A stretch of 64,000 nucleotides of DNA from a virus. Position 1 is the first letter of the stretch; every line of letters begins with the position of its first letter. The stretch lies in IMG/VR virus record IMGVR_UViG_3300017917_000784, positions 1 through 64,000 of that record; one strand, written 5' to 3'. The position numbers were made by a program, and so were the translations under genes. The notes under the pieces are model-generated. The model saw nothing but the letters and a program-made list of their open reading frames with translations. It had not been told where the DNA came from and did no database searches. Shown in pieces: positions 24,733 through 62,786 of the stretch.

Positions 24733-26285
24733 ATAAAAATTTAACCGCCACGCAGAAAGACTATGCAATATTTTTGCCAGCAACGTCTGGCTTTTATGCT
24801 ACATTTATAGGGAAACAGCGGTATGGTAACTATGTGGATCCAGCACGTATTCCTAAGTCTTTCCTTAACGGTGTAGAAAGTTTAAACTACCTAAACCCAG
24901 ATAAGGGTGCATTTTATTATAATTGGTGTTTATATTCAGCAGGGCATGCCAATCTTGACTTAAACAAAGTAGATCACGGTGAGGACATGTTCCGTAATCG
25001 AGATCGAAATACTAGTTGGGTATTAGGCGACAGCGGCGGTTTCCAAATTGGTAAAGGTGTATGGGAGGGTGATTGGAAAAATCCTAACTGTCCTAAAGCA
25101 CAAAAGAAACGCGAACAAGTTCTTAAGTGGATGGATGCACTTATGGACTATGGTATGTGTCTTGATATTCCTGCTTGGGTTGCTCGTAGCCCTGCTGGTC
25201 AAAAAGCCACAGGTATTACTACTTACGCAGAAGCAGTTCAAGGAACTTATATTAACAATGATTGGTTTGTAAACAATCGCAACGGTAATTGTAAATTCCT
25301 TAATGTGTTACAAGGCGAAAATCATGCCGATGCAGATGATTGGTATGATCGTATGAAGAAGTATTGTGATACTAAGATTTATGGTGATCGTGCTTTTAAC
25401 GGCTGGGCTATGGGCGGACAAAATATGTGCGACATACACTTAGTATTAAAAAGATTAGTAGCATTACGATTCGACGGATTACTTGAAAAGGGCCAACACG
25501 ATTGGATGCACTTCTTAGGCACAAGTAAACTAGAATGGGCAGTATTACTCACTGACATTCAACGAGCAGTTCGTAAGTACCATAACCCTAATTTTACAAT
25601 CAGTTTTGACTGTGCAAGTCCGTTCTTAGCCACAGCCAACGGTCAAGTCTATGTTCAAACAGAAACTGAGGATAGAACTAAATGGGTCTACAGAATGTTA
25701 CCTAGTATTGATAACAAAAAATATCATCAGGACACTAGACTATTTCGAGATGCAGTAGTACAAGACGGACATTTTAAAAACTTTGACAACAGCCCAATTA
25801 TCGACGGAGTAGAAATCAAAGATGTTTGTATTTACGGTCCAGGCGATTTGAATAAAATTGGCAAAGAAGGTAAAACAAGTTGGGATAGTTTTAGTTACGC
25901 TATATTAATGGGCCATAATGTTTGGATGCATCTAAACAGTGTGCAAGAAGCCAATCGTCAATATGATGCTGGTCGCTGTCCTAGTATGCTGGTTCAGGAA
26001 CGCTTTGATAGATTATTTTTTAAAGACATCGTTGAAGCAATATTTTCAACCAGTGATAGAGCAACTGCTGACAAGGTAGTAGAAGAATACAGTCGTTTTT
26101 GGATGAGTATTATTGGTACAAGAGGTGCAGTAGGTAAGAAAACAGTAAATGCTAGTACCAAATATTTCGAATTGTTTGACGAAGTGGACAATAATAGTGT
26201 ACAATCTACTGAAGAAGGCCATAGCGAAGAGTTTTCTGAAGAAGAAATTCACAAATTAGACAATTTAGAAGAAAGTGTAAAATGA
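24729..26285 (+). CDS. dpdA: TGT-fold transglycosylase, DpdA-like (7-deazaguanine insertion into DNA)
   Basis: LGDSGGFQ, MCLDIP, NVLQG, HFLG, SFDCASP match the TGT/DpdA pattern; folE, queD-like and queE nearby. Confidence 0.72.
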   Translation: MNKNLTATQKDYAIFLPATSGFYATFIGKQRYGNYVDPARIPKSFLNGVESLNYLNPDKGAFYYNWCLYSAGHANLDLNKVDHGEDMFRNRDRNTSWVLGDSGGFQIGKGVWEGDWKNPNCPKAQKKREQVLKWMDALMDYGMCLDIPAWVARSPAGQKATGITTYAEAVQGTYINNDWFVNNRNGNCKFLNVLQGENHADADDWYDRMKKYCDTKIYGDRAFNGWAMGGQNMCDIHLVLKRLVALRFDGLLEKGQHDWMHFLGTSKLEWAVLLTDIQRAVRKYHNPNFTISFDCASPFLATANGQVYVQTETEDRTKWVYRMLPSIDNKKYHQDTRLFRDAVVQDGHFKNFDNSPIIDGVEIKDVCIYGPGDLNKIGKEGKTSWDSFSYAILMGHNVWMHLNSVQEANRQYDAGRCPSMLVQERFDRLFFKDIVEAIFSTSDRATADKVVEEYSRFWMSIIGTRGAVGKKTVNASTKYFELFDEVDNNSVQSTEEGHSEEFSEEEIHKLDNLEESVK

Positions 26286-27160
26286 CAGCATTAGTTGTTG
26301 GATTGGGCATGGGTAATCTCTATGTTCAAGAATTAAAAAAATTAGGACATACTGTTGATACCGTTGACACAGATAAAAACAAAAATCCAACATTTTTATC
26401 CGCAGATCAGGTAACCGGTCATTACGCTATTGCCGTTATTTGTACTCCAAATTTTACACACGAGCCCATTGCAAGAACTATTGCAGATAAATGCGATATA
26501 GTTTTAATTGAAAAGCCAGGAGTCAAAGATAGTAATTCTTGGAAACAATTAACCGAAGATTATCCCAATACTAGATTTATGATGATTAAAAATAATCAGT
26601 ATAGGGATGAAATTTCACTGTTTAAAAAACAAGCTCTAGAAAGTAACAAAGTTTACGTTCGATGGAATAATGCAAATAGGATACCAAGTCCCGGCAGTTG
26701 GTTTACTACTAAATCAAAAGCATTTGGCGGAGTTAGCAGAGATTTAATACCGCACATGCTCAGTTATTATTGTGCGTTAACAGATTATAAGCAAGGTAAT
26801 AAAATTACTGCGACAGCAAAACAAAACTACGAACTTAAAAATATAGATTCCACCGATTACGGTATTATTGATCCTAACGGAATATATGACGTTGATGATT
26901 TTTGTTTGTTTGAATTTAAAAACGAAAACACCACTTGGATATTGACTGCTAATTGGAGAACTAAATTAGATCATGATGATAGTAGTATTGCATTTGTGTC
27001 TAAAAACGAATTGCCTAATAGATATGAGTTAGGGTTATGTCCTGAAGAAGCATATAATAAAATGATGTCAACTGCAATACAAAACCTAAATAATGACGAG
27101 TTTTGGAAAATACAATTGGATCAAGATCTTTGGATACATCAACAGATAGAAAATTTATGA
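26282..27160 (+). CDS. Gfo/Idh/MocA family oxidoreductase
   Basis: VVGLGMG Rossmann motif, ICTPNFTH, IEKPG, GGVSRDLIPH. Confidence 0.85.
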   Translation: MTALVVGLGMGNLYVQELKKLGHTVDTVDTDKNKNPTFLSADQVTGHYAIAVICTPNFTHEPIARTIADKCDIVLIEKPGVKDSNSWKQLTEDYPNTRFMMIKNNQYRDEISLFKKQALESNKVYVRWNNANRIPSPGSWFTTKSKAFGGVSRDLIPHMLSYYCALTDYKQGNKITATAKQNYELKNIDSTDYGIIDPNGIYDVDDFCLFEFKNENTTWILTANWRTKLDHDDSSIAFVSKNELPNRYELGLCPEEAYNKMMSTAIQNLNNDEFWKIQLDQDLWIHQQIENL

Positions 27161-28326
27161 AACCTCATATAATGTTGAGGAACAGTCTAGCAGGTATTAC
27201 GACTAGTCTGGCCATGGTGCCAGAAGTTGTTGCTTTTGCTTTATTGGCACAAGTTAATCCGTTAGTTGGTCTCTATGCCGCAGTGGTACTCGGATTAGTT
27301 ACTGCATTATTTGGAGGCAGACCAGGACTAATCAGCGGCGGCGCAGGTAGTTTGGCCGTAGTTAGCGTTGCCTTAGTTGTCAGTCACGGTGTGGAATATC
27401 TGTTTGCCTGTATTATACTTATGGGTATTTTTCAATTTTTATTTGGAGTATTTAGGTTAGGCAAACTAATCAAATTAGTAAGTCCTAGTGTAATGACTGG
27501 GTTTGTTAACGGATTGGCATTAGTTATTTTCCTTTCTCAATTTCATCAACTTAAAATCGATGATGTATGGTTACAAGGTTCAGCGTTGTTTAACATGATC
27601 GGCCTTGTTGCTGTTACTGTCTTCGGAGTAATTGTTGCTCCTAAAATAACTCGTCACATTCCAGCCAGCCTTTTTGGTATAGTGTTAGTCACTGCTATAG
27701 TATGGTGGTTTGGTATCGAGACTAGAACTGTTGGAGATATTGCTCAAATTAGTGGTTCCCTTCCTAGTTTTAATATTCCTAGTGTGCCTATGACGTTAGA
27801 GACCCTTTGGATTATTTTGCCTTATAGTTTGATACTTGCTATGATTGGGTTAATTGAGACATTATTAACTGCTAATTTGGTTGACGATTTTGTACATCAA
27901 CATAAACCCAATCATAAAACACACCCAAATAAAGAAAGTATGGCTCAAGGAGCAGGTAATATTTTAACTGGCTTTTTTGGAGGAATGGGCGGCTGTGCTA
28001 TGATTGGTCAAACTGTAATTAATCTAGAGGCTGGTGGATTTCATAGATTAGCAGGAGTTGTCCAAGCACTTTGCATCCTTGCTTACATTGTATTTGCTAG
28101 TTTTTTAATTGAGTCAATACCACTGGCCGCATTGATTGGTGTAATGTTTGTTGTGTGTTATCATACATTTAACTGGAAAAGTTTAAAAGTCTTTACACAG
28201 CCTAAAGAAGATGTTATTATTATTTTTATAGTAACTGTATCAACTGTGATTTTTAATTTGGCATATGCTGTTATAATTGGGGTACTATTAACTACCTTAC
28301 TTAACTATCGAAGAAAAGTTATATGA
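27157..28326 (+). CDS. sulP: SulP/SLC26 anion permease lacking STAS domain
   Basis: PEVVAFA, GGRPGLISG, GFFGGMGGCAMIGQ; ends soon after the last TM. Confidence 0.88.
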   Translation: MKPHIMLRNSLAGITTSLAMVPEVVAFALLAQVNPLVGLYAAVVLGLVTALFGGRPGLISGGAGSLAVVSVALVVSHGVEYLFACIILMGIFQFLFGVFRLGKLIKLVSPSVMTGFVNGLALVIFLSQFHQLKIDDVWLQGSALFNMIGLVAVTVFGVIVAPKITRHIPASLFGIVLVTAIVWWFGIETRTVGDIAQISGSLPSFNIPSVPMTLETLWIILPYSLILAMIGLIETLLTANLVDDFVHQHKPNHKTHPNKESMAQGAGNILTGFFGGMGGCAMIGQTVINLEAGGFHRLAGVVQALCILAYIVFASFLIESIPLAALIGVMFVVCYHTFNWKSLKVFTQPKEDVIIIFIVTVSTVIFNLAYAVIIGVLLTTLLNYRRKVI

Positions 28327-29213
28327 ATGTAAAAGTGTTACAGACATTAGGCGATGGAAAATTTGTAGAAGTTGACTGGAAAAAGCCCGAACCAACTAAT
28401 ACAGAAATTGAAGTCAAAAATATTATGACCGGTATCTGTCGTAGCGATATTGATATGATGACCGGTGATTTTGGCCCGTTACCTATTCATATGCAAGGGC
28501 ACGAGGGGTTAGGTGTAGTAACTAAAGTAGGTAGTGAAATCACAGATGTTAAAGTTGGAGATTTAGTTGCTACACGCGGCGAACCTGCTTATGCTGATTA
28601 TTATAATGTTAAGAAAAAAGAATATGTATCGGTACCCGAAGCTCACCCAAGATATATTATTGAACCTGTGGCCTGCGGTATTAATATTGTAGAGCAACCT
28701 AGAAAAGAAATTGAAAAACGACAAGGCGGAAGGTTATTAATTCTAGGTAGTGGGTTTTTAGCCTGGGTAGCGTACCATGATATTCTTTGGAATAAGTTTA
28801 ATTTTGAAATTGATGTAGTGGGTACTGCTAACAAAGACCTTTGGGGCGATGTTCTTAAATCAGAATATCATGGCAAGTATGACGTTATTATTGATTTGAG
28901 CAGTAAAGACGATGCGTTAACTAAAGATATTTTAAATGTTGGAGCATTAGTTATTTTTGGTAGTCAAAAATCTACTAACAGTGACTTTAGGTATCTACTT
29001 TGGAATGCCTGTACTATGACATTTCCTAGTCCAAGAAATGATGAGTTTTATTATTGGATGAAAAAAGCCGTTTACAGGATTCAAAACGGTGAACTTGATG
29101 TTGACAAGTTCTGGACAAAAGCATATAATAGAAGCACAGAATGGCAACAGGCGTTTCAAGACGGGTTGAATAGGCAATTAGGCTACAGTAGAGGGTATAT
29201 TAAATGGGTTTGA
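28323..29213 (+). CDS. Zn-dependent (MDR) alcohol/polyol dehydrogenase
   Basis: GICRSD, GHEGLG, VGD, EPVAC, LGSG. Confidence 0.85.
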   Translation: MNVKVLQTLGDGKFVEVDWKKPEPTNTEIEVKNIMTGICRSDIDMMTGDFGPLPIHMQGHEGLGVVTKVGSEITDVKVGDLVATRGEPAYADYYNVKKKEYVSVPEAHPRYIIEPVACGINIVEQPRKEIEKRQGGRLLILGSGFLAWVAYHDILWNKFNFEIDVVGTANKDLWGDVLKSEYHGKYDVIIDLSSKDDALTKDILNVGALVIFGSQKSTNSDFRYLLWNACTMTFPSPRNDEFYYWMKKAVYRIQNGELDVDKFWTKAYNRSTEWQQAFQDGLNRQLGYSRGYIKWV

Positions 29214-30139: not shown

Positions 30140-30376
30140 ATGAAACCCGAAGTAGTCAAAATTTTTGACGATCTTGAAGCACTGCATAATTTCTGCAGAA
30201 TCGAACTCCTGCCGTTTGACCCGGCAGATTTGTACAACCGTAGTTCCAAAGTTTGGCGCGATTTCGAATATTCAAAGAAGCCTAAACGTCAGTGGAACAA
30301 TGACAAGCCGCGATACAACAACGACCGGCCACGTCATAATAAAGAGTTTAATAATAAACCACGCTGGGAAAGATGA
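30140..30376 (+). CDS. Hypothetical protein
   Basis: AAGGA SD; N/R/K-rich repetitive tail. Confidence 0.65.
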   Translation: MKPEVVKIFDDLEALHNFCRIELLPFDPADLYNRSSKVWRDFEYSKKPKRQWNNDKPRYNNDRPRHNKEFNNKPRWER

Positions 30377-31488
30377 AAACCATCTACATAGTAGATCTTG
30401 AGGCAGTTGAAACTCGCTACACAGCGCAGTGGAAATCTCATCTGCCTAAACACCTGAGAAAGGAAGGGCACAATGTTCAAGTTATCTCTGGTCCTGAAGA
30501 TATTCCTAGTGCAACCACTCCTGGCGCTTTTCTTAATTTTGGTGGCACTAATATCTACAAGTCTAATCAAGTTGAGCAAATTGGTCGACTATTTTGCTCT
30601 GGACGCATTCACGCTGGCGACCACTTTATTTTTACTGATGCTTGGCATCCGGGCATTATAAATTTAAAATATATGAGTGAGCTACTGAACATTCCAGTAA
30701 TCACTCACGGATTATGGCACGCCGGTAGTTATGATCCTCAAGACTTTTTAGGACGTCTTGTTGGAAATAAACCGTGGGTCAGACATGCTGAGAAATCGTT
30801 TTTTTCGGCATTTGATTATAATTACTTTGCCACTTCTTTTCACATCGATATGTTTCATCATAATTTACTTAACGATGGTCTTATTGAAAATCCTTGGGAA
30901 AACGATGATAAGGTAGATATGATCCAATCCGGAAAATATGTACGCACAGGTTGGCCTATGGAATATATGGAAGATATTCTTACTGCTTATAAAGGCATGA
31001 AGAAGCGTAATCTTATATTGTTTCCACATCGTATTGCTCCAGAAAAACAAGTTGAAATTTTCCGTGACTTAAAAGAACACTTGCCGCAATATGAATTTGT
31101 TGTATGTCAGGATCAACAACTGACTAAAAACGAGTATCATAATTTGCTCGGTGAAGCAAAACTAGTTTTCAGTGCTAACTTACAAGAAACGTTGGGCATA
31201 TCTTGTTATGAAGGTGCGGTCGTAGATGCTATCCCTATGGTTCCTGACAGACTTAGTTATACAGAAATGTATTACGATACTTTCAAGTATCCTAGTAAGT
31301 GGACTGAGAGTTGGGAAAATTATCAAGGATATCGTCCGTATCTCTGTAAAAAGATTATAGAATATATGGACAACTATGATAAGTTCCTTCCTCAGTTGAA
31401 AAAACAGACTAAGGACTTAACAGACAACTTTTTTACTGCTAATGGACTCTATCAACAACTCAAGCATACCCATAGTATCGATAGATGA
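30373..31488 (+). CDS. GT-B glycosyltransferase
   Basis: FPHRIAPEKQ and LQETLGISCYEG (E-x7-E) signature. Confidence 0.8.
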   Translation: MKTIYIVDLEAVETRYTAQWKSHLPKHLRKEGHNVQVISGPEDIPSATTPGAFLNFGGTNIYKSNQVEQIGRLFCSGRIHAGDHFIFTDAWHPGIINLKYMSELLNIPVITHGLWHAGSYDPQDFLGRLVGNKPWVRHAEKSFFSAFDYNYFATSFHIDMFHHNLLNDGLIENPWENDDKVDMIQSGKYVRTGWPMEYMEDILTAYKGMKKRNLILFPHRIAPEKQVEIFRDLKEHLPQYEFVVCQDQQLTKNEYHNLLGEAKLVFSANLQETLGISCYEGAVVDAIPMVPDRLSYTEMYYDTFKYPSKWTESWENYQGYRPYLCKKIIEYMDNYDKFLPQLKKQTKDLTDNFFTANGLYQQLKHTHSIDR

Positions 31489-31819
31489 TATTCTATCTTC
31501 TGATACTATAACGTTGACATCTACTGGAATAGATACAATGTCTAGTGCCAATACTATTACTATTGATCTTAGTAACTATACTGGTAGTCAACCGTCATAC
31601 TACGATTCTACTATAGGAAACATAACATTAGGTTCAGGAGATAGTTTTAATTGGAGTATGATTGAAACTATCCCGTTTGAAAACGGGTTTCCAGAATGGC
31701 AAGATTTTCAAGAAATGTGCAAAGAGTATCCTGGATTAGAAAAAACACTTGAACACTTAAAATCATTTTACAAACTTTGTAAAGACGATTGGGAAACAAA
31801 GAAGAGAGGCGATGCCTAA
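31442..31819 (+). CDS. Hypothetical Ser/Thr-rich protein
   Basis: Low-complexity N-terminus, MCKEYPGLEK C-terminal helix. Confidence 0.65.
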   Translation: MDSINNSSIPIVSIDDILSSDTITLTSTGIDTMSSANTITIDLSNYTGSQPSYYDSTIGNITLGSGDSFNWSMIETIPFENGFPEWQDFQEMCKEYPGLEKTLEHLKSFYKLCKDDWETKKRGDA

Positions 31820-32780
31820 CAGTGATAACGGTACTATCTGTTCAGCATTCTGGCGTCATACTAATTTACGAGGCGACGACAGAGTGTTTCCCTGTTGCCG
31901 CTTTAAAGAACCTGTAGGAAAGTTTGACGGCGATGTTGTTAAAATTCTTAACAGCGAAGAATATCAAGAACTGCGTAGAGCCAGTTTAGCCGGAGAAAAA
32001 ATTTCTGGCTGTGCCAAATGCTATCATGAAGAAACATTAGGTAAAGAAAGTCTACGACAGCAGTTTAATAAGACCTATAATAGAGATAATGTCGAACTAG
32101 AATATTTAGAAATTGGTTTTGACAATATATGTAATCTTACCTGCGATGGGTGTTTTGACGAATTTAGCAACTCCTGGGCTAAGAAAAATAATCCGGATAA
32201 ACCAAAAAGAATCTTAACAACAAAATTACATGAAATTAAATCGTTACCTGATACCATAAGAAAAATATTGTTTTTAGGTGGCGAGCCGTTGATGACTAAC
32301 CGCCATAAAAAATTACTTAAGATGGTTAAGAATAAACATATGGTATCTGTGACCTACAACACCAATGGAACGTTTTTATTAGATTTAGACACTACTGATT
32401 TGTTAGACGAATTTAAAAAAGTTGATTTTATTGTTAGCATAGATGCTTATGGTGTTTTAAATAATCATGTAAGAAACGGAAGTAAGTGGGCAGGAATATT
32501 AGAATTTATAGATCAAATAGAGGATCTAGGATTTGATATATCTGTACACACAGTTATTCATAAAAATAATTGGTTTGGTCTTGCAGACTTACACAAATTT
32601 GTAGATCGTATGAGGTTACCCTGGACTACAAATATATTGACGTATCCCGCTCAGTTAGATATAATCAACCTAACAGATCAAGAAAAAAATAATTTTAAAG
32701 AAATACTCGATTCTACAGAAATCCCTAACAAGGATTATATTTTGGAACATTTATTCCACAGAAAGGCCGATAATGTTTAA
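31812..32780 (+). CDS. Radical SAM protein with N-terminal Cys-rich (Twitch/SPASM-like) domain
   Basis: CNLTCDGC, GGEP, YNTNG; N-terminal C...CC...CxxC. Confidence 0.88.
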   Translation: MPNSDNGTICSAFWRHTNLRGDDRVFPCCRFKEPVGKFDGDVVKILNSEEYQELRRASLAGEKISGCAKCYHEETLGKESLRQQFNKTYNRDNVELEYLEIGFDNICNLTCDGCFDEFSNSWAKKNNPDKPKRILTTKLHEIKSLPDTIRKILFLGGEPLMTNRHKKLLKMVKNKHMVSVTYNTNGTFLLDLDTTDLLDEFKKVDFIVSIDAYGVLNNHVRNGSKWAGILEFIDQIEDLGFDISVHTVIHKNNWFGLADLHKFVDRMRLPWTTNILTYPAQLDIINLTDQEKNNFKEILDSTEIPNKDYILEHLFHRKADNV

Positions 32781-36154: not shown

Positions 36155-36371
36155 ATCAGTTGCGCACACTTGCAAAGAAATTACAGTTAAAGAACATGAA
36201 GGATATCGTGTACGCATGGTGAAACACGAAGTTCTTAATCCGAAAGGGTTGTTTAGCCTTGATATCATTCAAGAAAGTTTAAAAGACGGTAAAGTTACTA
36301 ATAGTCAAACATATAACTTCTTTATGACTAAAGATGAATTGCAAACTCTAGCACACGGTTTAACATCATGA
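36141..36371 (+). CDS. Hypothetical protein
   Basis: AAGGAG SD before ATG 36141. Confidence 0.7.
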   Translation: MELHESVAHTCKEITVKEHEGYRVRMVKHEVLNPKGLFSLDIIQESLKDGKVTNSQTYNFFMTKDELQTLAHGLTS

Positions 36372-36889: not shown

Positions 36890-36890
36890 T

Positions 36891-39312: not shown

Positions 39313-39327
39313 ATAAACCTATATAAT
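39298..39327 (+). promoter_or_regulatory. sigma70-like promoter for folE
   Basis: TTGACA-18 bp-TATAAT. Confidence 0.7.
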
Positions 39328-39333
39328 ATTACA

Positions 39334-39360: not shown

Positions 39361-39369
39361 AAAATATAA

Positions 39370-47742: not shown

Positions 47743-47766
47743 ATATACATAAGTTAAGGAGCAGAT

Positions 47767-54490: not shown

Positions 54491-55751
54491 ACTGTAAAGT
54501 ATTTAATTTAGAAAAATTGTGATCAAGTATAGGTTTGATATCATCGTATAATCGTCTCAATTGATCTATGGTCATCGCATTTATTGAATCTAATGTTTTA
54601 AAAATCTTTTCTAAACGCAGTTGATGATCCGTTTCTTGATCATAACTTTCGTCCCAAAAATTACTGAACGTTTTAAATCCTAGACTTTTTAAATATTCAA
54701 GACTATATGGACTTGATAACAGTATAAAGGGACGCTTAGATTTAATAGCATTAAATGTTTTTTCAGTAATAGTACCTAACGGATGAGCAAATAATGATTC
54801 TGTAACTATGGCTAAAAAACTACATTGATACGATTCTAAAGGCAAAGGAACAGCATTAGGCGGTATGCCATCATAGTTGGGTGTAGTATAAAGTTGACCA
54901 TTATCTATACCTGTTATGTTAGGATTAATATCAATAGTCCATGGGGCTCCATTACATAGTATGCTGTCGTTTGATATAAAGTCAAATTTAGATAAGTCAA
55001 CCCATGTTTTTATATCTTGTATACTAGTATTATAGGACCAAGAAAACACAGAAGATTTATCAACAAGATATAATGCTGTTAAATGCCTATGTATATCGTA
55101 ACGCCAGTTACCTGACCAAAACTTACACTGTATTGTTTCGCTAGAGAAGTCAAGCAACGGATTATGTTGATGTGAATTTGGTATTCCTTCAGTATGGGCT
55201 AATAGACTTAAAAGAAAAATATCCTGTGTTTTTATTTGAAATTCAGGATAGTTGTTTTGCAATGAACTCGAATTGTACTCACAGGTGTAAACTGTTACAT
55301 TGATTAAATTATTTTGTTTAACAAATAATTTTATGCTTTCAAATTCATAAGAAAAATTACCCGCAGTAAAATCATAATCGCGTGGGCTGTATTCTTTATT
55401 TTCAGTAATATAAAATTTTTTTGTTGGTTCTTTTGTAAATGTTAGATTTTCAAATAGATATATGTCTAATCCTTTTTGATTTAACAGTACTCTATCGGCT
55501 GATTTTAAAATTAAATTTTCTAACTGTCGTATCGATCCTAGCCCTGTATAGATAAAGAAAGGGGTAGTTTGAGAATTTAAAATTGTGTTAGAATAATGTT
55601 CCTGAAAATAATCAAAAAATGTATAGTCAGCAAATCCTGGAAATAATGTATCTCCGCTGTCTGTGATTATTTTAGGTTCATTTATTTTCTGATATAGGAC
55701 TGCAAAGAAACCAGGTCCTTCTATACCGTTATAATTTGAGGATGAGGTCAT
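54483..55751 (-). CDS. Glycosyltransferase-like protein, paralogue 2
   Basis: Same C-terminal motif set (IVTES...TEK, GFKTF, WDESYD); start chosen to minimise overlap. Confidence 0.55.
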   Translation of the reverse strand: MTSSSNYNGIEGPGFFAVLYQKINEPKIITDSGDTLFPGFADYTFFDYFQEHYSNTILNSQTTPFFIYTGLGSIRQLENLILKSADRVLLNQKGLDIYLFENLTFTKEPTKKFYITENKEYSPRDYDFTAGNFSYEFESIKLFVKQNNLINVTVYTCEYNSSSLQNNYPEFQIKTQDIFLLSLLAHTEGIPNSHQHNPLLDFSSETIQCKFWSGNWRYDIHRHLTALYLVDKSSVFSWSYNTSIQDIKTWVDLSKFDFISNDSILCNGAPWTIDINPNITGIDNGQLYTTPNYDGIPPNAVPLPLESYQCSFLAIVTESLFAHPLGTITEKTFNAIKSKRPFILLSSPYSLEYLKSLGFKTFSNFWDESYDQETDHQLRLEKIFKTLDSINAMTIDQLRRLYDDIKPILDHNFSKLNTLQYA

Positions 55752-56919
55752 AATACTCTGCAAAAGTTTTAGGAAAACTTTCTCCTCTATATGGATCTCG
55801 AATTTCAATATCTTTTAAAAATCTCGACCATTGCTCTGGGTCGTCTTGAGATCCGTCTATGTAACTCCAAATCTTTTCAATTTCTTCCCAATACACTGTA
55901 CCTTGGTCCACTGTATTTTTAAAATGTTGATATATCTGATCTTTCAACTTTCTAGGTATGTGTTGCATGGCAAAATTGTTAGGATTGTATACTGTATTAA
56001 TAAAGAAAGGGAGATCATATTTTTTAGAAAAATCTATAACTTCATTTACATAATATACATTATAACTACTAGCAGTGTAATGAGTTAATAAAGTTCTACG
56101 TTCTCTATCTTCCTCTCTCCATGCTAACATTTTTTCAATATTAGAGTGTACTTGATCCCATTTAGCAGGATGACGCATATATTCAAATCTTTCGCCTATA
56201 CCATCAAGACTTAGACCTATTCCTACTAATCTAAAATGTTTAAAAAGTTCTACTCGAGAATCGTCCCAGAAAGTACAGTTAGTGTTAAAACTTAACTCGA
56301 TGTTTTTAGCATATCCTTTTTCTACTGCGTGTTCAAGAATATCCCATGTTGTTTTAATCATGAATGGTTCGCCACCAAAGAAATGTAATTCTTCTATATC
56401 GGCTAAACTTTGAGATTTTAAAGATTGATAAAAACTACTGTCCGGTTCAATTCTAAATATATTTTGTTTTTGGAAAGTTTGGTAATACTCTTTTTGGTCG
56501 CCTAAATCTAAATCATAAAACTCTTTAATCCAGTAAGAACTATCTATAGGATTGCAGGTACGACATTTAAGATTACACTGGTTACCTAAAGCAAGATCTA
56601 TTAGAGTAAGTTTATTATTCTTTTCATAAGTTTTACCAAACCACCGTATTTCACTCATACGAGGACTTTCGCCACCAATGTCTTCTACTTCCCAACACTT
56701 GGTGCAGTTTTTGTCTCGAATACCGTTGTCGAGATTTGTACGTATTTGCTGAAACTCTGGACTGTTAAACGCTTCCTCGAGAGTATGTGTTTGAGCCATA
56801 AACGGTTTTCCTGTTTTAGAATCAATAACAGGATCACCATTACAACAAGTTGTAATTAGGCCACTAGTTTTAATACTAACATTATGTGCGGCAAACGGAC
56901 ACCATAAGTCTTTATTCAT
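55729..56919 (-). CDS. Radical SAM protein with N-terminal Twitch/SPASM-like domain
   Basis: CNLKCRTC, GGEPF, FNTN, N-terminal C..CC..CxxC. Confidence 0.88.
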   Translation of the reverse strand: MNKDLWCPFAAHNVSIKTSGLITTCCNGDPVIDSKTGKPFMAQTHTLEEAFNSPEFQQIRTNLDNGIRDKNCTKCWEVEDIGGESPRMSEIRWFGKTYEKNNKLTLIDLALGNQCNLKCRTCNPIDSSYWIKEFYDLDLGDQKEYYQTFQKQNIFRIEPDSSFYQSLKSQSLADIEELHFFGGEPFMIKTTWDILEHAVEKGYAKNIELSFNTNCTFWDDSRVELFKHFRLVGIGLSLDGIGERFEYMRHPAKWDQVHSNIEKMLAWREEDRERRTLLTHYTASSYNVYYVNEVIDFSKKYDLPFFINTVYNPNNFAMQHIPRKLKDQIYQHFKNTVDQGTVYWEEIEKIWSYIDGSQDDPEQWSRFLKDIEIRDPYRGESFPKTFAEYYDLILKL

Positions 56920-57901
56920 GATTTCTCTCTAAATCTAAAGTAACACAGTGGAACCCGCCACCTAATGTTCGTTGCTGACGTCCTGGCAAGCAAGCACAAT
57001 CTATACCATAGCTCTCAATTTGTCGACGCAGTTCATCTTGTCCCTCTAACATAACTACGAGGTCTGGTCTTATACTAAACAAATTAACGTTTAACCAAGG
57101 ACTAGCGTTGCAGTATCCAGGATAGTGACCAATATCTACTGGGTCTGCGGCAAATATAGCGTCCCAACTTTGTAATTTTTTAGGTAGTTGATCTTTGCTT
57201 TTTACACGACTAGGATTTAACAACATCAGTCCTTCACGTAGAAAAGCAATAGTACTATCAATATGCATATAACTATATACGCCTTCGACTAAATGAACTT
57301 TTTTATTTGGTACTAAACTCTGCAAATACTCCGCTCCGGTTTTATTTCCACTATTGCTGACTAGATAATACAAATCATCATTATCACGTAAAATATTTGC
57401 GGCATCAAAACTAGGTTCTACTTCGGTAAGTGCTAACGTATTTTTGTCACCTAAACAATTTATGTTATACAATCCGTCTGGTCTAGAAATTTGCTTATCA
57501 ATATACCTGACATTTTGTCTTGTATAAGGATAAAAATGCTCGTGCATGGCCATATATTCATTAGTTCTTGCTCGAAGAGGTTGTGGTGTTGCTAAAATTA
57601 AATCATCGTAAACTAGTACGTTATCTCTAGGACAATAATTATAATATTTAGGCACACGAGTTTTATCAGGCCGTAAAACTTCAACTCCTTCTTTACGTAA
57701 TAAATCGCAAAACTTTTCTAAATCTTCGTTGGCTTCGTCTATAACTTGTTGCGGATATTTTCCTTGAGGGATTTCACTAACGTCTTTTTTATCTGCGTAA
57801 TTTATAGTACGCAAACTAATGTCAAGAGACGGAATAGTAGCATCATCGGCAATACCGACTATTACTTTTTTTAACGGGTCGTATTCGTTTTTACTAAGCA
57901 T
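56912..57901 (-). CDS. Amidinotransferase #2
   Basis: NEYDPLKKVIVG, CPRD, FDAAN, HIDST, GGFHCVTLD. Confidence 0.9.
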   Translation of the reverse strand: MLSKNEYDPLKKVIVGIADDATIPSLDISLRTINYADKKDVSEIPQGKYPQQVIDEANEDLEKFCDLLRKEGVEVLRPDKTRVPKYYNYCPRDNVLVYDDLILATPQPLRARTNEYMAMHEHFYPYTRQNVRYIDKQISRPDGLYNINCLGDKNTLALTEVEPSFDAANILRDNDDLYYLVSNSGNKTGAEYLQSLVPNKKVHLVEGVYSYMHIDSTIAFLREGLMLLNPSRVKSKDQLPKKLQSWDAIFAADPVDIGHYPGYCNASPWLNVNLFSIRPDLVVMLEGQDELRRQIESYGIDCACLPGRQQRTLGGGFHCVTLDLERNHE

Positions 57902-58484
57902 TGAAAACCTTCATTTTAGATATGTTTGGGTAGTCTTGCCAACTCCATTGTTTGGCTTCTCGTTCTATACAACTTGGTAGTTTTTCTAAACCTAATTGAG
58001 CAGTTTCTGGAGTCATATAGTAATGATAACCCATTATATCTACGTCTTGCTCTGCCCATGGTACATCAGGCAACCTTCCATCGTAACTCATTTTTTTAAG
58101 TGTAATATAATCGTCTTTGTTATCGCAAAGTATCATACCGCCACGGCCTAGATTAAGATGTTTTCTAAATTGAAAACTAAGACAAATTAGTTTTCCTGAA
58201 ATATAACCATTTTGTTTCCAGTAAACTGCACCATCGATTATATTTGTATTACCTATTTCGTAATACTCCTGCCATTGTTCATTTTTAAATTCCCATGATA
58301 ATCCTAACTTTTTAAAAGTCATAGGAATTGAAAGATATGTATGTGTAGGGCAAGTAACATTATTACTATTACGAAGCCTTAAAGATAATTCAATGGCATG
58401 AGTACAACAATCGGTACTTACAGCGTAAGGAGCATTGTAAAATTCAGCAACTGATTGTTCGAACTCTGCTATCTTATTCCACAT
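57894..58484 (-). CDS. Short DegT/DnrJ/StrS-type PLP aminotransferase
   Basis: AVSTDCCTHAI, IIDGA, LSFQFRKHL..GRGG. Confidence 0.8.
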   Translation of the reverse strand: MWNKIAEFEQSVAEFYNAPYAVSTDCCTHAIELSLRLRNSNNVTCPTHTYLSIPMTFKKLGLSWEFKNEQWQEYYEIGNTNIIDGAVYWKQNGYISGKLICLSFQFRKHLNLGRGGMILCDNKDDYITLKKMSYDGRLPDVPWAEQDVDIMGYHYYMTPETAQLGLEKLPSCIEREAKQWSWQDYPNISKMKVFNA

Positions 58485-59842
58485 TAATCAAAAATCCACT
58501 GTTTAGTTTTTAAAGTTTTTAACATTTCAGCATTATTTTCTAATATATCTTGCATATTAGAATACATAACGCGAAGTTCGTTAATATCCTTGCTATCTAT
58601 ATAGTCAATAACTTTTAATATCTTTAGCATTCGTTGTTCTGGATCCTCTTCCTCATCATAACTTTCGTCCCAGAATCTGCCAAAAGTTTGAAATCCTTGT
58701 TTCCTCATATACTCTAACGTATGAGGAGGTGCAACAATTACAAAAGGTCTACCTAGTTTCATAGCGTTCATTGCTTTTTCGCTAAAAATGCCCATTGGTT
58801 GTGCAAACATTGTTTCTGTTACCACTACACAGAAACTATTTAAGTAGGCATCGTCCATTCGATAATCGCTAGGACTTCCGCAAGTGTAATTTCCTGGAAA
58901 TTTCCAGTAGTCTATGTTTCCATCAATTTTTGTTACTGGCTGTTCTATATTAATCTGTAACGGAGATTTTAAATTTAAATCCTCTACCCCTTGTACCAAT
59001 ACAGTATATTGATCAGGATTTTTTGTTTTCCAAGTTTCCAAATCAAACCAAAGATTTTTCTTTAAAACATCAATACTTCCATTGAAGTACCAAGAATAGT
59101 GTCCGCTTTTGTTTACAAGATAACTCATAATTACATGTCTTGCAGTATGATATCTCCAATTTGGGCAGACAAATTTACGTTCTATTAAACTAACTACATC
59201 AGGTAATTTACGGAAAGGATACTCGTCCTCAGGCGGATAGTCAACCATTGATGCTAGATGAAGATCTTTACAGTGTAGATTTATATTAGGATACTTGTGC
59301 TGAAAGTATTTCTTTACATTATAGTGACACCCGTATACATTTACTTTTTTAAGATTATTGCGTTCAGCAAAAATTGATATGGATTCAAATTCGTAGCATC
59401 TTAAATCCGCATAGTGCTCTAACTTGCAGTCAAATATCATATTATCACCGCAATTTTTTACAATAGTTTCTGAAATTGCGGCATCTTTGTCTGGATGATT
59501 AAATTTTTTAGACTTATCTATATTGCCTAACCCAAATGTTAATACTTCATAAAGATAAATGTCTAGTCCTTTATCATTAAGATGATCGATTGTTCGTTGA
59601 TCAAATGTTTTAGTTTCTAATTGGGGTATATACCCTTTAACTCCACATATCATATGTGGCGTTGTTTCAGAATCAATCCATGTAGGTGCTATAGCCCACT
59701 TATAAAAATGAAAAAAGTAAGCATCGTCTTCATGATACAATTCTGTACCATCCATTAATGTTATATGTCCTTGACGATTATCTAACAGTAATCTTTCAAA
59801 TAAAATAAAATTATCGTAGGCCTTGGCTATATATTCAGACAT
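58484..59842 (-). CDS. Glycosyltransferase-like protein, paralogue 3
   Basis: PNWRY, VVTET...SEK, RPF, GFQTF..FWDESYD. Confidence 0.55.
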   Translation of the reverse strand: MSEYIAKAYDNFILFERLLLDNRQGHITLMDGTELYHEDDAYFFHFYKWAIAPTWIDSETTPHMICGVKGYIPQLETKTFDQRTIDHLNDKGLDIYLYEVLTFGLGNIDKSKKFNHPDKDAAISETIVKNCGDNMIFDCKLEHYADLRCYEFESISIFAERNNLKKVNVYGCHYNVKKYFQHKYPNINLHCKDLHLASMVDYPPEDEYPFRKLPDVVSLIERKFVCPNWRYHTARHVIMSYLVNKSGHYSWYFNGSIDVLKKNLWFDLETWKTKNPDQYTVLVQGVEDLNLKSPLQINIEQPVTKIDGNIDYWKFPGNYTCGSPSDYRMDDAYLNSFCVVVTETMFAQPMGIFSEKAMNAMKLGRPFVIVAPPHTLEYMRKQGFQTFGRFWDESYDEEEDPEQRMLKILKVIDYIDSKDINELRVMYSNMQDILENNAEMLKTLKTKQWIFD

Positions 59843-60890
59843 TCTGTTCCTCTATCATTTTATTAAACTCGTTAGGATCGTTTAATCTATCATCAAACGA
59901 AGAACAAGTTGTGGCACACGTAAATAATCGACCTTGTTCATAATTTTTATCCCATGTCGATTTAATATCAGTAAAAAAATTACCCTCTATTATAGAATGC
60001 CATGCTGTTTTTCTTAAATCAATTTTATCTTTGTGTTCTTCCCAAATTTTTTCCCACCCGTCTTGAATAACTGCGCCTCGACGAGCGTATACTCCGGCTG
60101 CTAAAAAACAGCAAGGAAATACTCTACCTAAGTGGTCAATGTAAACACTTTGATTTTTTAATACATAACAGTCAATACAACTGTTATCAGAATCGTTCAT
60201 TATACCCTTAAGAGTTTTAGGTGTTCGATGTAAGATTACTTTATGTGTTAAGGATTCATCGCTAGGCGGCTCTACTGGACGAGAACGTCCTAACACTTCA
60301 TCTAATGCAAACCTATGACTTGGTTTAACTATAAATTTTTGAAATCCTAACTTTTCGGATAAACTTCTTGCTTCTTCTACTTGATGTTGGTTGTGTTTAA
60401 AAGTTATATATTGCCAGTATGGTTTCCCGCCACCTTCTACAAAGGCGTGTACGTTAGCCATAACGTTAGCCCAGCGTACATTGACTCGGTATATGTGGTT
60501 AGTATCTTCTAACCCGTCTATGGCAAAAATAACTTCGCTACGATCGCCTACTATTTCTGCAAGTTCTTTCCAAAAATTAGGACTACGAAGCCCACCGTTA
60601 GTGCTAATTTTTATTATTATATCTGGATTCTTTTTTCTAATTAATCTACATACATCTAAAAAGTTTGGTGCCGCACAAGGATCTCCTATGTTGCCACAAA
60701 AGAAAATTATTTTTGATTCTTGATAAACGTAATCAGGAATCAAATTAAAAAATTCAGTTTCTAAATATGTTTCTTGAAGCCAACTTTTATCCTCGGGCGT
60801 TATTTCTCTAACACATTGAGGGCAGGCAGCATTACAAATACTGCTGTTTTCAATTTGAACTTCAAAAAATTTACCTGTATAAAATGTCAT
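59835..60890 (-). CDS. Radical SAM protein with C-terminal SPASM/Twitch-like Cys motif
   Basis: CNAACPQC, GNIGDP, STNG, IDG, PCCF, CATTC. Confidence 0.88.
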   Translation of the reverse strand: MTFYTGKFFEVQIENSSICNAACPQCVREITPEDKSWLQETYLETEFFNLIPDYVYQESKIIFFCGNIGDPCAAPNFLDVCRLIRKKNPDIIIKISTNGGLRSPNFWKELAEIVGDRSEVIFAIDGLEDTNHIYRVNVRWANVMANVHAFVEGGGKPYWQYITFKHNQHQVEEARSLSEKLGFQKFIVKPSHRFALDEVLGRSRPVEPPSDESLTHKVILHRTPKTLKGIMNDSDNSCIDCYVLKNQSVYIDHLGRVFPCCFLAAGVYARRGAVIQDGWEKIWEEHKDKIDLRKTAWHSIIEGNFFTDIKSTWDKNYEQGRLFTCATTCSSFDDRLNDPNEFNKMIEEQNV

Positions 60891-61576
60891 TGTGGGTCCG
60901 GAAATATAATTGCTTGATCTTTGTATTTTTTAAGACTTTTATTAACTAACTGTCTATGTTTTTCTCTATCTAAAATTCCTAATACACAAAGCATGATTTT
61001 ATTTTGTTCAACATAATCTGCTCCGTGCCAATGATATCGTTCACAAATACTAAAACATGCTTGTTTTTTAGTAATATTTGGATATATCTTTTCACTATCT
61101 TTATTTTCAGAAACATAGAAACTCTTACTTTCATGCTTATTCATTAGAACATTGTAACGTCGAGGCTCTATATCAATTGCAATTTCTGTAGGATCGACTA
61201 TGATATCTCTTTGCTGAGCGTCCATATGAGTATTGACTTGTTCTCTCTGCATCAACATTACCACAAAACTAAATTCTAAAAACGGAAGTTGATCTAGCAT
61301 ATAAGGAATTTCAGGAAACACTTTGTCTATATCGTTAGCGTATAACGAGGGACCAAGATTTGGAATAAATCTCGAATATAAACAATTTTTAAACTTTTCA
61401 ACATCGTACCATTCATTACCTTTTAACCGTCCACGAACTGGAATTTTATTCCAATGCTCCATAGAATCAATATTTTGATTCCAATCTTTAGCTCTGGTTT
61501 CTTGACAGAAATCTAAAAGTTTTTGTTCGTCAGGTAACTGAACATCGATGTCTATAGGTAAGTATGCTATTGTCAT
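60887..61576 (-). CDS. Fe(II) oxygenase-like hypothetical protein
   Basis: THMD...WHGAD (HxD...H). Confidence 0.5.
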   Translation of the reverse strand: MTIAYLPIDIDVQLPDEQKLLDFCQETRAKDWNQNIDSMEHWNKIPVRGRLKGNEWYDVEKFKNCLYSRFIPNLGPSLYANDIDKVFPEIPYMLDQLPFLEFSFVVMLMQREQVNTHMDAQQRDIIVDPTEIAIDIEPRRYNVLMNKHESKSFYVSENKDSEKIYPNITKKQACFSICERYHWHGADYVEQNKIMLCVLGILDREKHRQLVNKSLKKYKDQAIIFPDPQ

Positions 61577-62097
61577 GTTTTTATTAAATCTATCATCAAA
61601 ATTACTCTGTCGTTGTCTGTGGGATTAAAAGCAAAATGTTCTACTGTGTCATCAAATACAGTATCTTCGCCTTCGTTCCAATAATAAACATCACCACCAA
61701 CATTAATCCATGCTTTACCAGATGCTATTAAACCTAAATGATACTTAAACACCGCAGGATTATCTGGGCCGCTATGTGGAAATATTTCGCAGCCGCCCTT
61801 TAATATACTAAACCCTACTAAGAAAATATTAGGTATTTTTTCTGCTACGCTTATAGTCACTGGACAAAATTCTTTATCTACTAACCATTTACCATCAATA
61901 AACAACGGAAGAAAATCCCACTGCCCGTTGTTGTTAGTAACTACTCCGTCTGGGCCGTCAACAATAGTTCCTTGGAATGCTTTTGGAGGCCACTTTTCTG
62001 CGTGATCTTTAACAGATAAAAATTCATCACGAATAGTTTTCCAATGTTGTTTAACATGGCTTACAGAAGGAAAATTACTTGTGGAAAATATGTTCAT
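61573..62097 (-). CDS. Aspartyl/asparaginyl beta-hydroxylase family protein
   Basis: FSIL..G..I.PH.G, YHLGL, W.EGE..VFDD..EH..N....RVILMID. Confidence 0.85.
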   Translation of the reverse strand: MNIFSTSNFPSVSHVKQHWKTIRDEFLSVKDHAEKWPPKAFQGTIVDGPDGVVTNNNGQWDFLPLFIDGKWLVDKEFCPVTISVAEKIPNIFLVGFSILKGGCEIFPHSGPDNPAVFKYHLGLIASGKAWINVGGDVYYWNEGEDTVFDDTVEHFAFNPTDNDRVILMIDLIKT

Positions 62098-62786
62098 AGT
62101 TTTTCTAATATCATATCTATAAAATCATCTTCGTAGTTAGATCTAAAACTATTCAGTGCCGCTTCTTGTAGTCTTTTTGGAGAGTAAGTTTCCTGTATCG
62201 TCATTCCAAGTTTATCTAACACACCGTGCATTTTTTCTAATCTGCCTGGACTAATTTGTATTAATAAATTTTCAAAACTGTCTGTGTCTTTATCTGTATC
62301 GTAACAAAAAAACCAGTTTATAGGAAACATTACTCCGTCCTGTATTGTCCAACTATTAGGATGTAGACTTAATTTTGTAATATTTGCATTCCACATACAT
62401 TGTATTAAATTAGCCCACTGTTCTTTCCAATTTTTACACGCTAATTCTCTACTACCTGCTGAGATACTTTGCATTAAAAAATCGTCACCTGGCCATTTGT
62501 ATATTACTTTACGTTCAACTTCATCTATATCTTCAATTTCTAACACAGGCATAAACTCTTTAGCCTTTGAATGAAATTTTAATTCTTTGCGAAATCTATC
62601 TTCTAACAACTGCTCAGTCCAGAGTGTATTTTCTTCAACACTGCGATGGTATCTTATGTCTCTAGCAAACCACTGACAAAAGTGTTTTTTATCAGGACTA
62701 ACATAGGCACTATAGACTAAATTGGCTCGTACCAATTCGTCCCCTTCTAAGTTCCAATATAAGTTCCAATTTGATATATCTGTCAT
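62094..62786 (-). CDS. Hypothetical protein, possibly degenerate kinase-like fold
   Basis: FRKEL helix, KLSLHPNSW and PINWFF loosely echo kinase catalytic-loop and DFG regions. Confidence 0.45.
   Translation of the reverse strand: MTDISNWNLYWNLEGDELVRANLVYSAYVSPDKKHFCQWFARDIRYHRSVEENTLWTEQLLEDRFRKELKFHSKAKEFMPVLEIEDIDEVERKVIYKWPGDDFLMQSISAGSRELACKNWKEQWANLIQCMWNANITKLSLHPNSWTIQDGVMFPINWFFCYDTDKDTDSFENLLIQISPGRLEKMHGVLDKLGMTIQETYSPKRLQEAALNSFRSNYEDDFIDMILEKL

Follow-up and report, generated by a model that had tools for sequence, protein, structure and literature searches.

Introduction

Amidinotransferases of the StrB1 type are known from bacterial aminoglycoside and toxin pathways, and we describe here two of them, AT1 and AT2, in a phage genome fragment, the IMG/VR virus record IMGVR_UViG_3300017917_000784 (85,169 bases; CheckV completeness, 23%), whose first 64 kb constitute the analyzed stretch (hereafter, the window). 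Genes of this kind have been noted in phages before. In the Campylobacter phages CP220 and CPt10, five radical SAM genes and a putative glycine amidinotransferase gene were called an interchangeable module (PMC2853527, 2010). In the Synechococcus phage S-SCSM2R, ORF305–309, with annotations including “AHBA synthase,” radical SAM, and “inosamine amidinotransferase,” were called antibiotic-synthesis genes, and a “glycine amidinotransferase” was reported from purified virions (PMC12801897, 2025). More distantly, a viral gene of the creatine pathway, GAMT, has been discussed as an auxiliary metabolic gene (PMC11360552), a table in another paper includes K00613, a viral glycine amidinotransferase (PMC8226683), and 7-deazaguanine DNA is described for phages including CP220 (PMC10516641).

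Our full-text literature searches found gene-level mentions and annotations and no biochemical characterization of such phage genes, in agreement with an earlier, sequence-only reading of the window, which knew of no characterized phage pathway of this kind; the genes themselves are noted in the CP220 and S-SCSM2R papers (PMC2853527; PMC12801897). That reading had seen in the window a parallel to streptidine biosynthesis, with two rounds of oxidation, transamination, and amidination in one pathway. Here, we propose instead, with a probability of roughly one half, that the span carries two copies, of different ancestry, of a mobile amine-then-guanidine cassette that would tailor a guanidino sugar or glycoside in a jumbo phage.

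Two StrB1-Type Amidinotransferases with Intact Catalytic Motifs

The gene inventory of the sequence-only reading stood up well: every coordinate matches an open reading frame (ORF; table 1), and our searches bear out two amidinotransferases of the StrB1 type, a pyridoxal phosphate (PLP) enzyme translationally coupled to each, a twitch-type radical SAM gene near each of them, a StrG-like oxygenase, a nucleoside diphosphate (NDP)-sugar epimerase, four glycosyltransferase-like genes, and a possible kinase-like ORF. Genes without a name are designated below by their lower coordinate.

Judged by their sequences, AT1 and AT2 are shown to be StrB1-type enzymes whose catalytic Cys and His motifs are intact. 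AT1 matches StrB1 (PDB 1bwd) over residues 3–350 of 352 (E 7.5e-85) and is 41% identical, at full length, to the Streptomyces griseus strB1 ORF (locus L144), and AT2 is likewise a full-length relative (E 4.4e-62). In a comparison made as bit scores against PDB chains, both are nearer to StrB1 (288 bits for AT1 and 213 bits for AT2) than to AGAT, HsvA, or SxtG (172–182 and 101–125 bits, respectively). The Cys of GGFHC and the His of H-x-D-S-T are kept in both enzymes and are invariant in 16 of 16 viral rows of an alignment of hand-chosen amidinotransferase sequences (A4), while at the Asp position of FDA(A/P)N, StrB1 and AT2 have Asp, and AT1 and L012 have Glu; this Cys, His, and Asp correspond to the catalytic residues of StrB1 and AGAT. 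Pfam alone would miss both enzymes, since its ADI model matches them only at E 1e-3 and 9.5e-3.

To place the two enzymes, we used a quick maximum-likelihood tree of 128 rows, for which matches shorter than 300 aa and ORFs outside 300–420 aa were dropped, 159 rows were reduced to 130 unique ones, and L019_AT2like and L073_ATb were left out. Its root is unreliable, because the branch of the CP220 outgroup is very long. AT1 falls in a clade of 55 rows (SH-aLRT 94), made of 51 viral rows and 4 rows labeled as metagenome-assembled genomes (MAGs), and AT2 groups with S-SCSM2R (support 99), to whose “inosamine amidinotransferase” it is 57.7% identical, and with L116 (95). A separate clade of 14 actinomycete rows (100) holds the enzymes of S. 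griseus and S. bluensis, and neither AT1 nor AT2 lies inside this clade of streptomycin/bluensomycin enzymes in the 128-row tree. A search of a protein collection returned 1,429 proteins at E ≤ 1e-10, of which the 120 listed are each at least 57% identical to AT1.

Each Amidinotransferase Is Coupled to a PLP Enzyme of Its Own Fold

Each amidinotransferase gene is overlapped by a PLP gene upstream of it, by 20 nt for AT1 and by 8 nt for AT2. The partner of AT1 (33828) has no Pfam, PHROG, or single-protein PDB sequence match, and the profile of its family finds an aminotransferase as its best PDB hit, at only E 0.03. In the family model (pLDDT 92.8), the fold is that of class I/II aminotransferases (Foldseek 1e-10; VIA Z 22–23 over 289–305 residues), with AspAT, HisC, MppP, RohP, and Plu4 as matches. 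In an alignment of 36 rows (A2), composed of 35 of the 43 unique homologs from related loci and the window protein, the S-x-S-K motif, an Asp, and an Arg are invariant throughout (36/36), the conserved positions being S135, P137, G142, D165, S190, S192, K193, and R201. By this predicted fold and these PLP motifs, 33828 is placed among the class I/II (PF00155-type) enzymes; PF00155 itself is carried by 1 of 120 relatives listed.

The partner of AT2 (57894) is a member of the DegT/DnrJ/EryC1/StrS family by gathering score (Pfam DegT, 4.8e-14, 52.8 bits vs. a cutoff of 19.8) and by its PLP lysine, K108 of SFQxxKHL, invariant in three of three DegT orthologs, with a length of about half the family norm. 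Its best matches are sugar aminotransferases of the ArnB, perosamine, and LegC types (LegC family, 4e-9; ArnB-like PDB chain, 8.3e-5), and its orthologs in S-SCSM2R and L019 are of the same size (195–198 aa; 55–56% identical). The arrangement expected from streptidine biosynthesis, a DegT aminotransferase feeding an amidinotransferase, is thus found for AT2, and the partner of AT1 is of another fold.

Genes overlap by 1–80 nt (mostly 4–8) along 62786→53150 and by 7–58 nt along 31812→38897, an arrangement that operons would be expected to show. GC content is 0.31–0.35 across the minus-strand island (window 52000–64000), compared with 0.35–0.42 elsewhere, and the skew reverses there, which fits a separate acquisition of cassette 2. 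Given that AT1 and AT2 belong to separate clades and that AT2 sits in a tightly coupled island of lower GC, the supposed two rounds are two cassettes of separate origin and not a duplicated step of one pathway.

The Unit That Recurs in Other Genomes

Searching IMG/VR with a profile of AT1 and AT2, we found at least 533 stretches that encode an amidinotransferase relative; the cassette is common in uncultured phages. We kept 80 viral loci, fetched with 10 kb on each side of the amidinotransferase, and compared all ORFs of the record with all of them by tblastn (E 1e-5). The resulting co-occurrence counts are rough, since loci are often cut at their ends and include near-duplicates. What recurs is a mobile cassette of a small cupin oxygenase, a PLP enzyme, an amidinotransferase, a putative GT-B transferase, and an N-terminal-twitch (N-twitch) radical SAM enzyme. 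A 33828-type PLP enzyme is found in 71/80 loci, ending just upstream of the amidinotransferase in 46 of the 80, an N-twitch radical SAM relative in 60/80, a small cupin in 45–66/80, and the GT-B family in 33–37/80. Other genes of the window are rarer companions: the 37261-type oxygenase occurs in 9/80 loci (abutting the amidinotransferase gene in 8 of these), the 36368-type phosphoribosyltransferase follows the amidinotransferase in 8/80, the 32773-type cupin is in 5/80, the sugar dehydratase/epimerase 51753 in 3/80, and the half-size DegT in a single locus. Two amidinotransferases lie within the fetched flanks in 2/80 viral loci, and their copy number in five longer virus records ranges from one to several.

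Among the 80 loci kept from bacterial genomes, cassette partners occur only in L089, L090, L091, L093, and L116, all of them contigs labeled as MAGs. One of these, L091, labeled as a Puniceispirillum MAG, carries homologs of the phage genes 44642–50442 (40–79% identical) beside its amidinotransferase; since it bears this phage's own genes, it is probably of phage origin and was sorted into the bacterial MAG by binning. A typical marine locus (L052), taken as one representative with 10 of its 13 ORFs scanned, adds a NodU/CmcH-type carbamoyltransferase (6104–7897; 1.2e-58) and a tryptophan halogenase (15099–16583; 4.5e-91), together with two 2-oxoglutarate (2OG) oxygenases and a further radical SAM gene. 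In another locus (L057), tblastn was uninformative for a neighboring protein of 1,675 aa.

Partner Genes of the Two Cassettes

The features of the two cassettes and of the adjacent module are collected in table 1.

Table 1. Coordinates in the window of the two cassettes and associated genes, with the match or model behind each assignment
Feature	Coordinates	Strand	Basis
Divergent Gfo/Idh/MocA-like oxidoreductase	26282..27160	+	Below-cutoff Pfam hits to the N domain (23.2 bits) and the C domain (20.3 bits)
SulP-family permease, sulfate/bicarbonate transporter type	27103..28326	+	Pfam Sulfate_transp 6.3e-50
Medium-chain dehydrogenase/Zn-alcohol-dehydrogenase-like protein	28323..29213	+	Pfam ADH_N 8.7e-12, N-terminal domain only
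GT4-like glycosyltransferase	30373..31488	+	Homologs 40–48% identical, annotated “glycosyltransferase (family 4)”, phages Phosso and PAC2
N-twitch radical SAM enzyme, cassette 1	31812..32780	+	NF033640
Cupin protein	32773..33267	+	phrog_4786 “cysteine dioxygenase” 5.3e-40
Small AspH-like cupin oxygenase	33233..33835	+	Matches S-SCSM2R ORF308, annotated “2OG-Fe(II) oxygenase”
Short (314 aa) class I/II aminotransferase-fold PLP enzyme	33828..34772	+	Model
AT1, StrB1-type L-arginine amidinotransferase	34753..35811	+	PDB 1bwd
Xanthine/guanine-type phosphoribosyltransferase-like protein	36368..36889	+	Pfam Pribosyltran 3.4e-16
HIT-family protein	36831..37268	+	Pfam HIT 3.3e-7
2OG-Fe(II) oxygenase (“sporadic carbohydrate cluster”) with LIC12192-family domain	37261..38394	+	TIGR04324 3.4e-17, TIGR04323 1.4e-12
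NDP-sugar 4,6-dehydratase/epimerase-type SDR	51753..52676	+	Pfam Epimerase 1.3e-40, GDP_Man_Dehyd 1.8e-38
GT-B-fold glycosyltransferase-like, paralog 1	53150..54490	-	38% identical to 54483
GT-B-fold glycosyltransferase-like, paralog 2 (modeled)	54483..55808	-	Model
N-twitch radical SAM enzyme, cassette 2	55729..56919	-	NF033640
AT2, StrB1-type amidinotransferase, other clade	56912..57901	-	PDB 1bwd
Half-size (196 aa) DegT-family PLP enzyme	57894..58484	-	Pfam DegT
GT-B-fold glycosyltransferase-like, paralog 3	58484..59842	-	35% identical to 54483
Radical SAM/SPASM enzyme	59835..60890	-	Pfam Radical_SAM 1.6e-5, SPASM 3.5e-4
229-aa protein in minus-strand operon	60887..61576	-	No Pfam or NCBIfam match
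Asp/Asn beta-hydroxylase-type cupin 2OG oxygenase	61573..62097	-	Pfam Asp_Arg_Hydrox 2.5e-30
Kinase-like protein (RIO/APH/Kdo-kinase fold), first gene of minus-strand operon	62094..62786	-	Atlas

Both twitch proteins belong to NF033640 (N_Twi_rSAM; cutoff, 170 bits), with 215.6 bits for 31812, which also carries a Pfam Radical_SAM domain and an N-terminal SPASM domain, and 297 bits for 55729. The radical SAM/SPASM protein 59835 matches TIGR04317 below cutoff (5.4e-16). The small cupin 33233 has paralogs at 38370–38897, 52673–53185, and 63605–64102, and the second of these has as its Atlas neighbors viral clusters with PF05118 in about 20% of their members.

The putative GT-B family has no Pfam, NCBIfam, PHROG, or PDB sequence match, and its assignment comes from a model of 54483 (pLDDT 65; pTM 0.69), the family alignment (A3) comprising 21 locus sequences and the three window paralogs. 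Foldseek places T4 BGT on top (4.9e-5), then WaaG and OtsA, at TM 0.2–0.4; 35 matches reach E ≤ 0.001, and those listed are titled glycosyltransferases. VIA Z scores range over 8.5–10.9, with T4 BGT at 10.9 (270 residues, rmsd 5.4), TarM at 10.0, and T4 AGT at 9.0–9.2. The fourth glycosyltransferase-like gene, 30373, has no Pfam, NCBIfam, or PHROG match and owes its label to its annotated homologs.

The sugar-type SDR 51753 falls below every NCBIfam cutoff, its best match being LegB (7e-36), then RmlB (5.5e-27) and GalE (7e-24), so that the epimerase of the earlier reading looks more like a LegB/RmlB-type 4,6-dehydratase. In the oxygenase 37261, the N-terminal domain is 30% identical (E 1e-8) to a 199-aa S. 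griseus ORF two genes after strB1, located after strB1/strF, which we presume from the gene order to be StrG. The phosphoribosyltransferase-like protein 36368 matches NF006613 below cutoff (2.1e-19). The kinase-like protein 62094 has no Pfam or NCBIfam match, and its Atlas neighbors are RIO1/APH/Kdo clusters (feature score, 0.96; TM 0.60–0.70 to RIO/APH-like models). PHROGs gave nothing for eight of ten window proteins without assignment, and the ORFs 29204, 60887, and 62829 had no match in the family libraries tried.

Genomic Setting and Neighboring Modules

The record belongs near the jumbo phages, its family B DNA polymerase being closest to those of Sinorhizobium phage Phosso (51%), Agrobacterium phage Atu_ph07 (48%), and the 121Q group (45%), and it also codes for a thymidylate synthase, a dihydrofolate reductase, and a 5'–3' exonuclease. 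Positions 33000–38000 have no megablast match among cultured phages. Three DNA sequencing runs contain 31812–38897 or part of it, two of them, labeled pond metagenome, covering most of the stretch, and one of these two may be where the DNA came from; a fourth listed DNA run covers next to none of it, and no RNA run is among the runs listed.

Upstream of cassette 1, the Gfo/Idh/MocA-like protein 26282 has a weak PDB match to DgpA (6.8e-4), and the Zn-dehydrogenase-like protein 28323 has weak NCBIfam matches that include scyllo-inosose 3-dehydrogenase (3.3e-7). Each occurs in 2/80 viral loci, and when four Streptomyces str-type loci were searched at E ≤ 1, the sole hit of 26282 spanned 22 aa (E 0.81), and 28323 had none. 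The sequence-only reading had likened the two to StrI and StsB; the genes are there, but the Gfo match stays below cutoff, the Zn-dehydrogenase is recognized in its N-terminal domain only, and the supposed link of StrI/StsB-type dehydrogenases to the amidinotransferases found no support. We propose to assign the genes for the Gfo/Idh/MocA, SulP, and Zn-dehydrogenase proteins to a neighboring module, outside the recurrent cassette. Co-occurrence across related genomes, the absence of which that reading would have taken as a refutation, was borne out for the PLP and twitch radical SAM genes and failed for the two dehydrogenases. The phylogeny that it had called for places AT1 and AT2 outside the S. 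griseus/S. bluensis clade, AGAT, HsvA, and SxtG having been compared by bit score, and its single two-round pathway is not supported, given the different clades of the amidinotransferases, the different folds of their PLP partners, and the rarity of loci with two amidinotransferases.

Between the two dehydrogenase-like genes sits the SulP permease, a membrane transporter and as such an unusual phage cargo; it is 407 aa long, against 547–572 positions in the NCBIfam models, and matches sulP (5e-58) and BicA (1.5e-48) below their cutoffs. Homologs of 24729–26285 (+), which has no Pfam or NCBIfam match, and of 30373–31488 (+) are adjacent in PA5oct-type Pseudomonas jumbo phages, as they are next to each other in PAC2; phage Phosso has both, not adjacent. 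Here, the two genes are about 4 kb apart, with the Gfo, SulP, and Zn-dehydrogenase genes and three small ORFs between them.

Downstream of AT1, the stretch 36368–42156 (+) encodes the xanthine/guanine-type phosphoribosyltransferase-like and HIT proteins, a GTP cyclohydrolase I (FolE, 1.1e-38), and a QueE-like radical SAM protein, which suggests a 7-deazaguanine pathway beside cassette 1; QueC and QueD were not identified by the searches used on the window. FolE lies within 10 kb in 7/80 viral loci, and in two related jumbo phages the amidinotransferase is 16 kb (G001, 99% complete) and 97 kb (G002) from the FolE and 24729-like genes. Because of these distances, the nesting of cassette 1 among 7-deazaguanine-type genes is not conserved, and a dependence of the cassette on them is weakened. 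Farther on, 45025–48939 (+) carries a B12-binding-type radical SAM protein (493 aa), then a MoxR-type AAA ATPase and a DUF2201 metallopeptidase/VWA protein; the MoxR ATPase–VWA pair is also present in 8–9/80 related loci. ThyA was considered as a possible hydroxymethylase and rejected, since it is a true thymidylate synthase (374 bits vs. a cutoff of 327), and for this reason no hydroxymethyl-pyrimidine route is visible.

Beyond the window, the record holds more radical SAM genes and Asp/Asn-hydroxylase-type cupins. It also encodes, at 70356–71570 (-), a third, divergent amidinotransferase-like protein of 404 aa, which keeps GGWHC and GHLDG and lacks the CPRD motif. An operon at record positions 79847–84888 (-; locus L087), 16 kb past the window, comprises an SDR, an EEVS/DDGS-type cyclase, an APH-type kinase, a RuBisCO-like protein, a cupin, and a nucleotidyltransferase, and may encode a phage route to an activated C7 cyclitol. 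Its cyclase gene, of the sedoheptulose-7-phosphate type (80518–81579), matches PDB 4p53 (5.9e-77), 5tpr (2.5e-64), and DOIS (3e-21); we take 4p53 to be the EEVS ValA and 5tpr to be DDGS, their PDB titles being “Cyclase” and “3-dehydroquinate synthase.” Between the start of this operon and AT2 lie about 22 kb, the closest amidinotransferase-like gene being about 8 kb away. Five other virus records with an amidinotransferase, of which one is 99% complete, were searched for the cyclase with a working positive control, and it was found in none of the five, which weakens any dependence of the cassette on the cyclitol operon.

A Putative Amine-Then-Guanidine Route and Its Alternatives

Taken together, the coupled amidinotransferase and PLP pairs, the twitch radical SAM enzymes, the oxygenase, the kinase-like ORF, the glycosyltransferases, and the SDR make it a sound inference that an amine, then a guanidine, is installed on a sugar-like molecule. 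In the route that we envisage for each cassette, a PLP enzyme would place a primary amine on a sugar-like substrate, whose keto group could come from the LegB/RmlB-like 4,6-dehydratase 51753 or from the N-twitch radical SAM enzyme acting as an alcohol dehydrogenase. The amidinotransferase would then move the amidino group of L-arginine to this amine, giving a guanidine and ornithine. Small cupin and 2OG oxygenases might hydroxylate the product and the kinase-like protein phosphorylate it, and the three GT-B paralogs would attach the modified unit to an acceptor or to more sugars. The outcome would be a strongly cationic guanidino-glycoside or glycan, carried by a virion protein, the host envelope, or DNA, or by no acceptor at all if it were a free small molecule. 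A sugar is favored as the substrate by four kinds of partner, namely the DegT enzyme, the sugar dehydratase, the GT-B paralogs, and the oxygenase of the carbohydrate-cluster type.

Several observations weigh against this proposal. The known substrates of StrB1 are phosphorylated aminocyclitols and not NDP-sugars, and the dehydrogenase role lent to the radical SAM enzymes is modeled on BtrN, an enzyme of the 2-deoxystreptamine route. The search of PDB with 55729 (phmmer) returned nothing, the GT-B assignment depends on a model of pLDDT 65 with Z scores of 9–11 and TM 0.3–0.4, and a nucleotidyltransferase was not found in the window. The fold of 33828 is typical of amino-acid enzymes, the arginine-oxidizing MppP, RohP, and Plu4 tying with ordinary aminotransferases. 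Finally, many of the 80 loci are cut by contig ends and several are nearly identical, so that the counts are neither independent nor complete.

In the strongest competitor, which we nevertheless regard as unlikely, the amidinotransferases would resemble AGAT, HsvA, and CyrA in using an amino acid, a polyamine, or another small amine of that sort, and the AspH-like oxygenases would, together with the class I/II PLP enzyme, process an arginine-like or guanidino-acid metabolite. The fold of the cassette 1 PLP enzyme, whose ties include the arginine-acting enzymes just named, and the many Asp/Asn-hydroxylase-type cupins would suit it, as would the practice of ocean surveys of grouping such genes with the “creatine biosynthesis” auxiliary metabolic genes, the filing of viral creatine-pathway genes as auxiliary metabolic genes (PMC11360552), and the tabulated viral K00613 (PMC8226683). 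Yet AT1 and AT2 score far higher to StrB1, whose length they share, than to AGAT, HsvA, or SxtG, the arginine-oxidase matches are level with ordinary aminotransferases at Z 22–23, and the sugar-type partners listed above speak for another class of substrate. Somewhat more doubtful is a streptidine-like cyclitol route, in which two rounds of oxidation, transamination, phosphorylation, and amidination would yield a guanidino or diguanidino cyclitol, possibly derived from the EEVS-type operon and then glycosylated by the GT-B enzymes. That operon, with its cyclase, SDR, APH-type kinase, cupin, and nucleotidyltransferase, lies in the same record and keeps a cyclitol substrate conceivable in this phage; the identity of AT1 to StrB1, the StrG-like oxygenase, the kinase-like ORF, and the twitch radical SAM genes, which recall BtrN, point the same way. 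Against it stand the scarcity of the Gfo and Zn-dehydrogenase genes among the loci and their want of a meaningful match in the Streptomyces str-type loci, the differing amidinotransferase clades and PLP partners, the rarity of loci with two amidinotransferases, and a cyclase that was not found in the five other carriers and whose operon is remote from AT2. No cyclitol-forming gene was seen among the scanned window ORFs.

A further reading, which we hold to be improbable, is that the phage builds an aminoglycoside-like guanidino pseudo-oligosaccharide, released as a free antibiotic-type small molecule, its starting unit being an amino sugar or a C7 cyclitol supplied by the EEVS-type operon; after amination, this unit would receive amidino groups from AT1, AT2, and the third amidinotransferase-like protein and sugars from the GT-B paralogs. 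Such a compound might act on ribosomes, nucleic acids, or competing phages or bacteria, and would be a virus-encoded natural product of antibiotic type. Least probable of all, in our view, cassette 1 would tailor a DNA base, for instance by amidinating an aminomethyl-7-deazaguanine, with the GT-B proteins serving as DNA glycosyltransferases like T4 BGT and AGT. Cassette 1 is indeed nested among the FolE, QueE-like, phosphoribosyltransferase-like, and HIT genes and a possible DpdA gene, the phosphoribosyltransferase-like gene follows the amidinotransferase in some other loci, T4 BGT and AGT are among the best folds of the GT-B model, and CP220 combines 7-deazaguanine DNA (PMC10516641) with an amidinotransferase module. 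However, the supposed DpdA gene is the matchless 24729, the amidinotransferase lies far from FolE and 24729-like genes in G001 and G002, FolE seldom accompanies the viral loci, ThyA offers no route to hydroxymethyl-pyrimidines, and BGT is within 1–2 Z units of protein and teichoic-acid glycosyltransferases. If the guanidino sugar that we prefer were real, it would represent a novel type of cationic decoration made by phages, or else a novel small molecule, and could bear on adsorption, superinfection immunity, DNA protection, or chemical warfare.

Comparison with Known Systems

Compared with the streptidine branch of S. griseus, the phage enzymes share the length class of StrB1 and its Cys and His motifs, the gene upstream of AT2 encodes a DegT PLP enzyme, much as StsC acts ahead of StrB1 in the logic of the pathway, and the phage also has a kinase-like gene and a homolog of the S. 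griseus ORF that lies two genes past strB1. The differences are equally clear: the viral enzymes form clades of their own, the window has neither an inositol-forming gene nor a StrI-like match, the PLP partners are a half-size DegT protein and a short enzyme of class I/II fold, and radical SAM enzymes and GT-B paralogs take the place of most streptomycin tailoring genes. Routes to NDP-4-amino-4,6-dideoxyhexoses (LegB/LegC, perosamine, ArnB) resemble cassette 2 in that 51753 is nearest to LegB/RmlB and the DegT enzyme to LegC, ArnB, and perosamine enzymes, but both score below the cutoffs of those families and the DegT protein lacks most of the small domain; moreover, these routes involve no amidinotransferase, and a nucleotidyltransferase was not found in the phage window. 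As for NF033640, to which both twitch enzymes belong, the family name states no function.

Among phages, the CP220 module likewise has an amidinotransferase flanked by radical SAM and glycosyltransferase-like genes, the latter being two GT-A-like genes accompanied by a PAP2 phosphatase. Its amidinotransferase, in contrast, is 24–26% identical to AT1 and AT2, on a very long branch, and none of the annotations in the displayed region is for a PLP gene. S-SCSM2R is closer, with orthologs of AT2, of the half-size DegT enzyme (56%, 195 aa), and of the small cupin, the first two sitting among five annotated glycosyltransferases; it differs in gene order and in its glycosyltransferase families, with no match at 1e-4 to the GT-B paralogs of the window. 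Synechococcus phage S-SCSM2R and Campylobacter phage CP220 are two culturable carriers that make the question testable.

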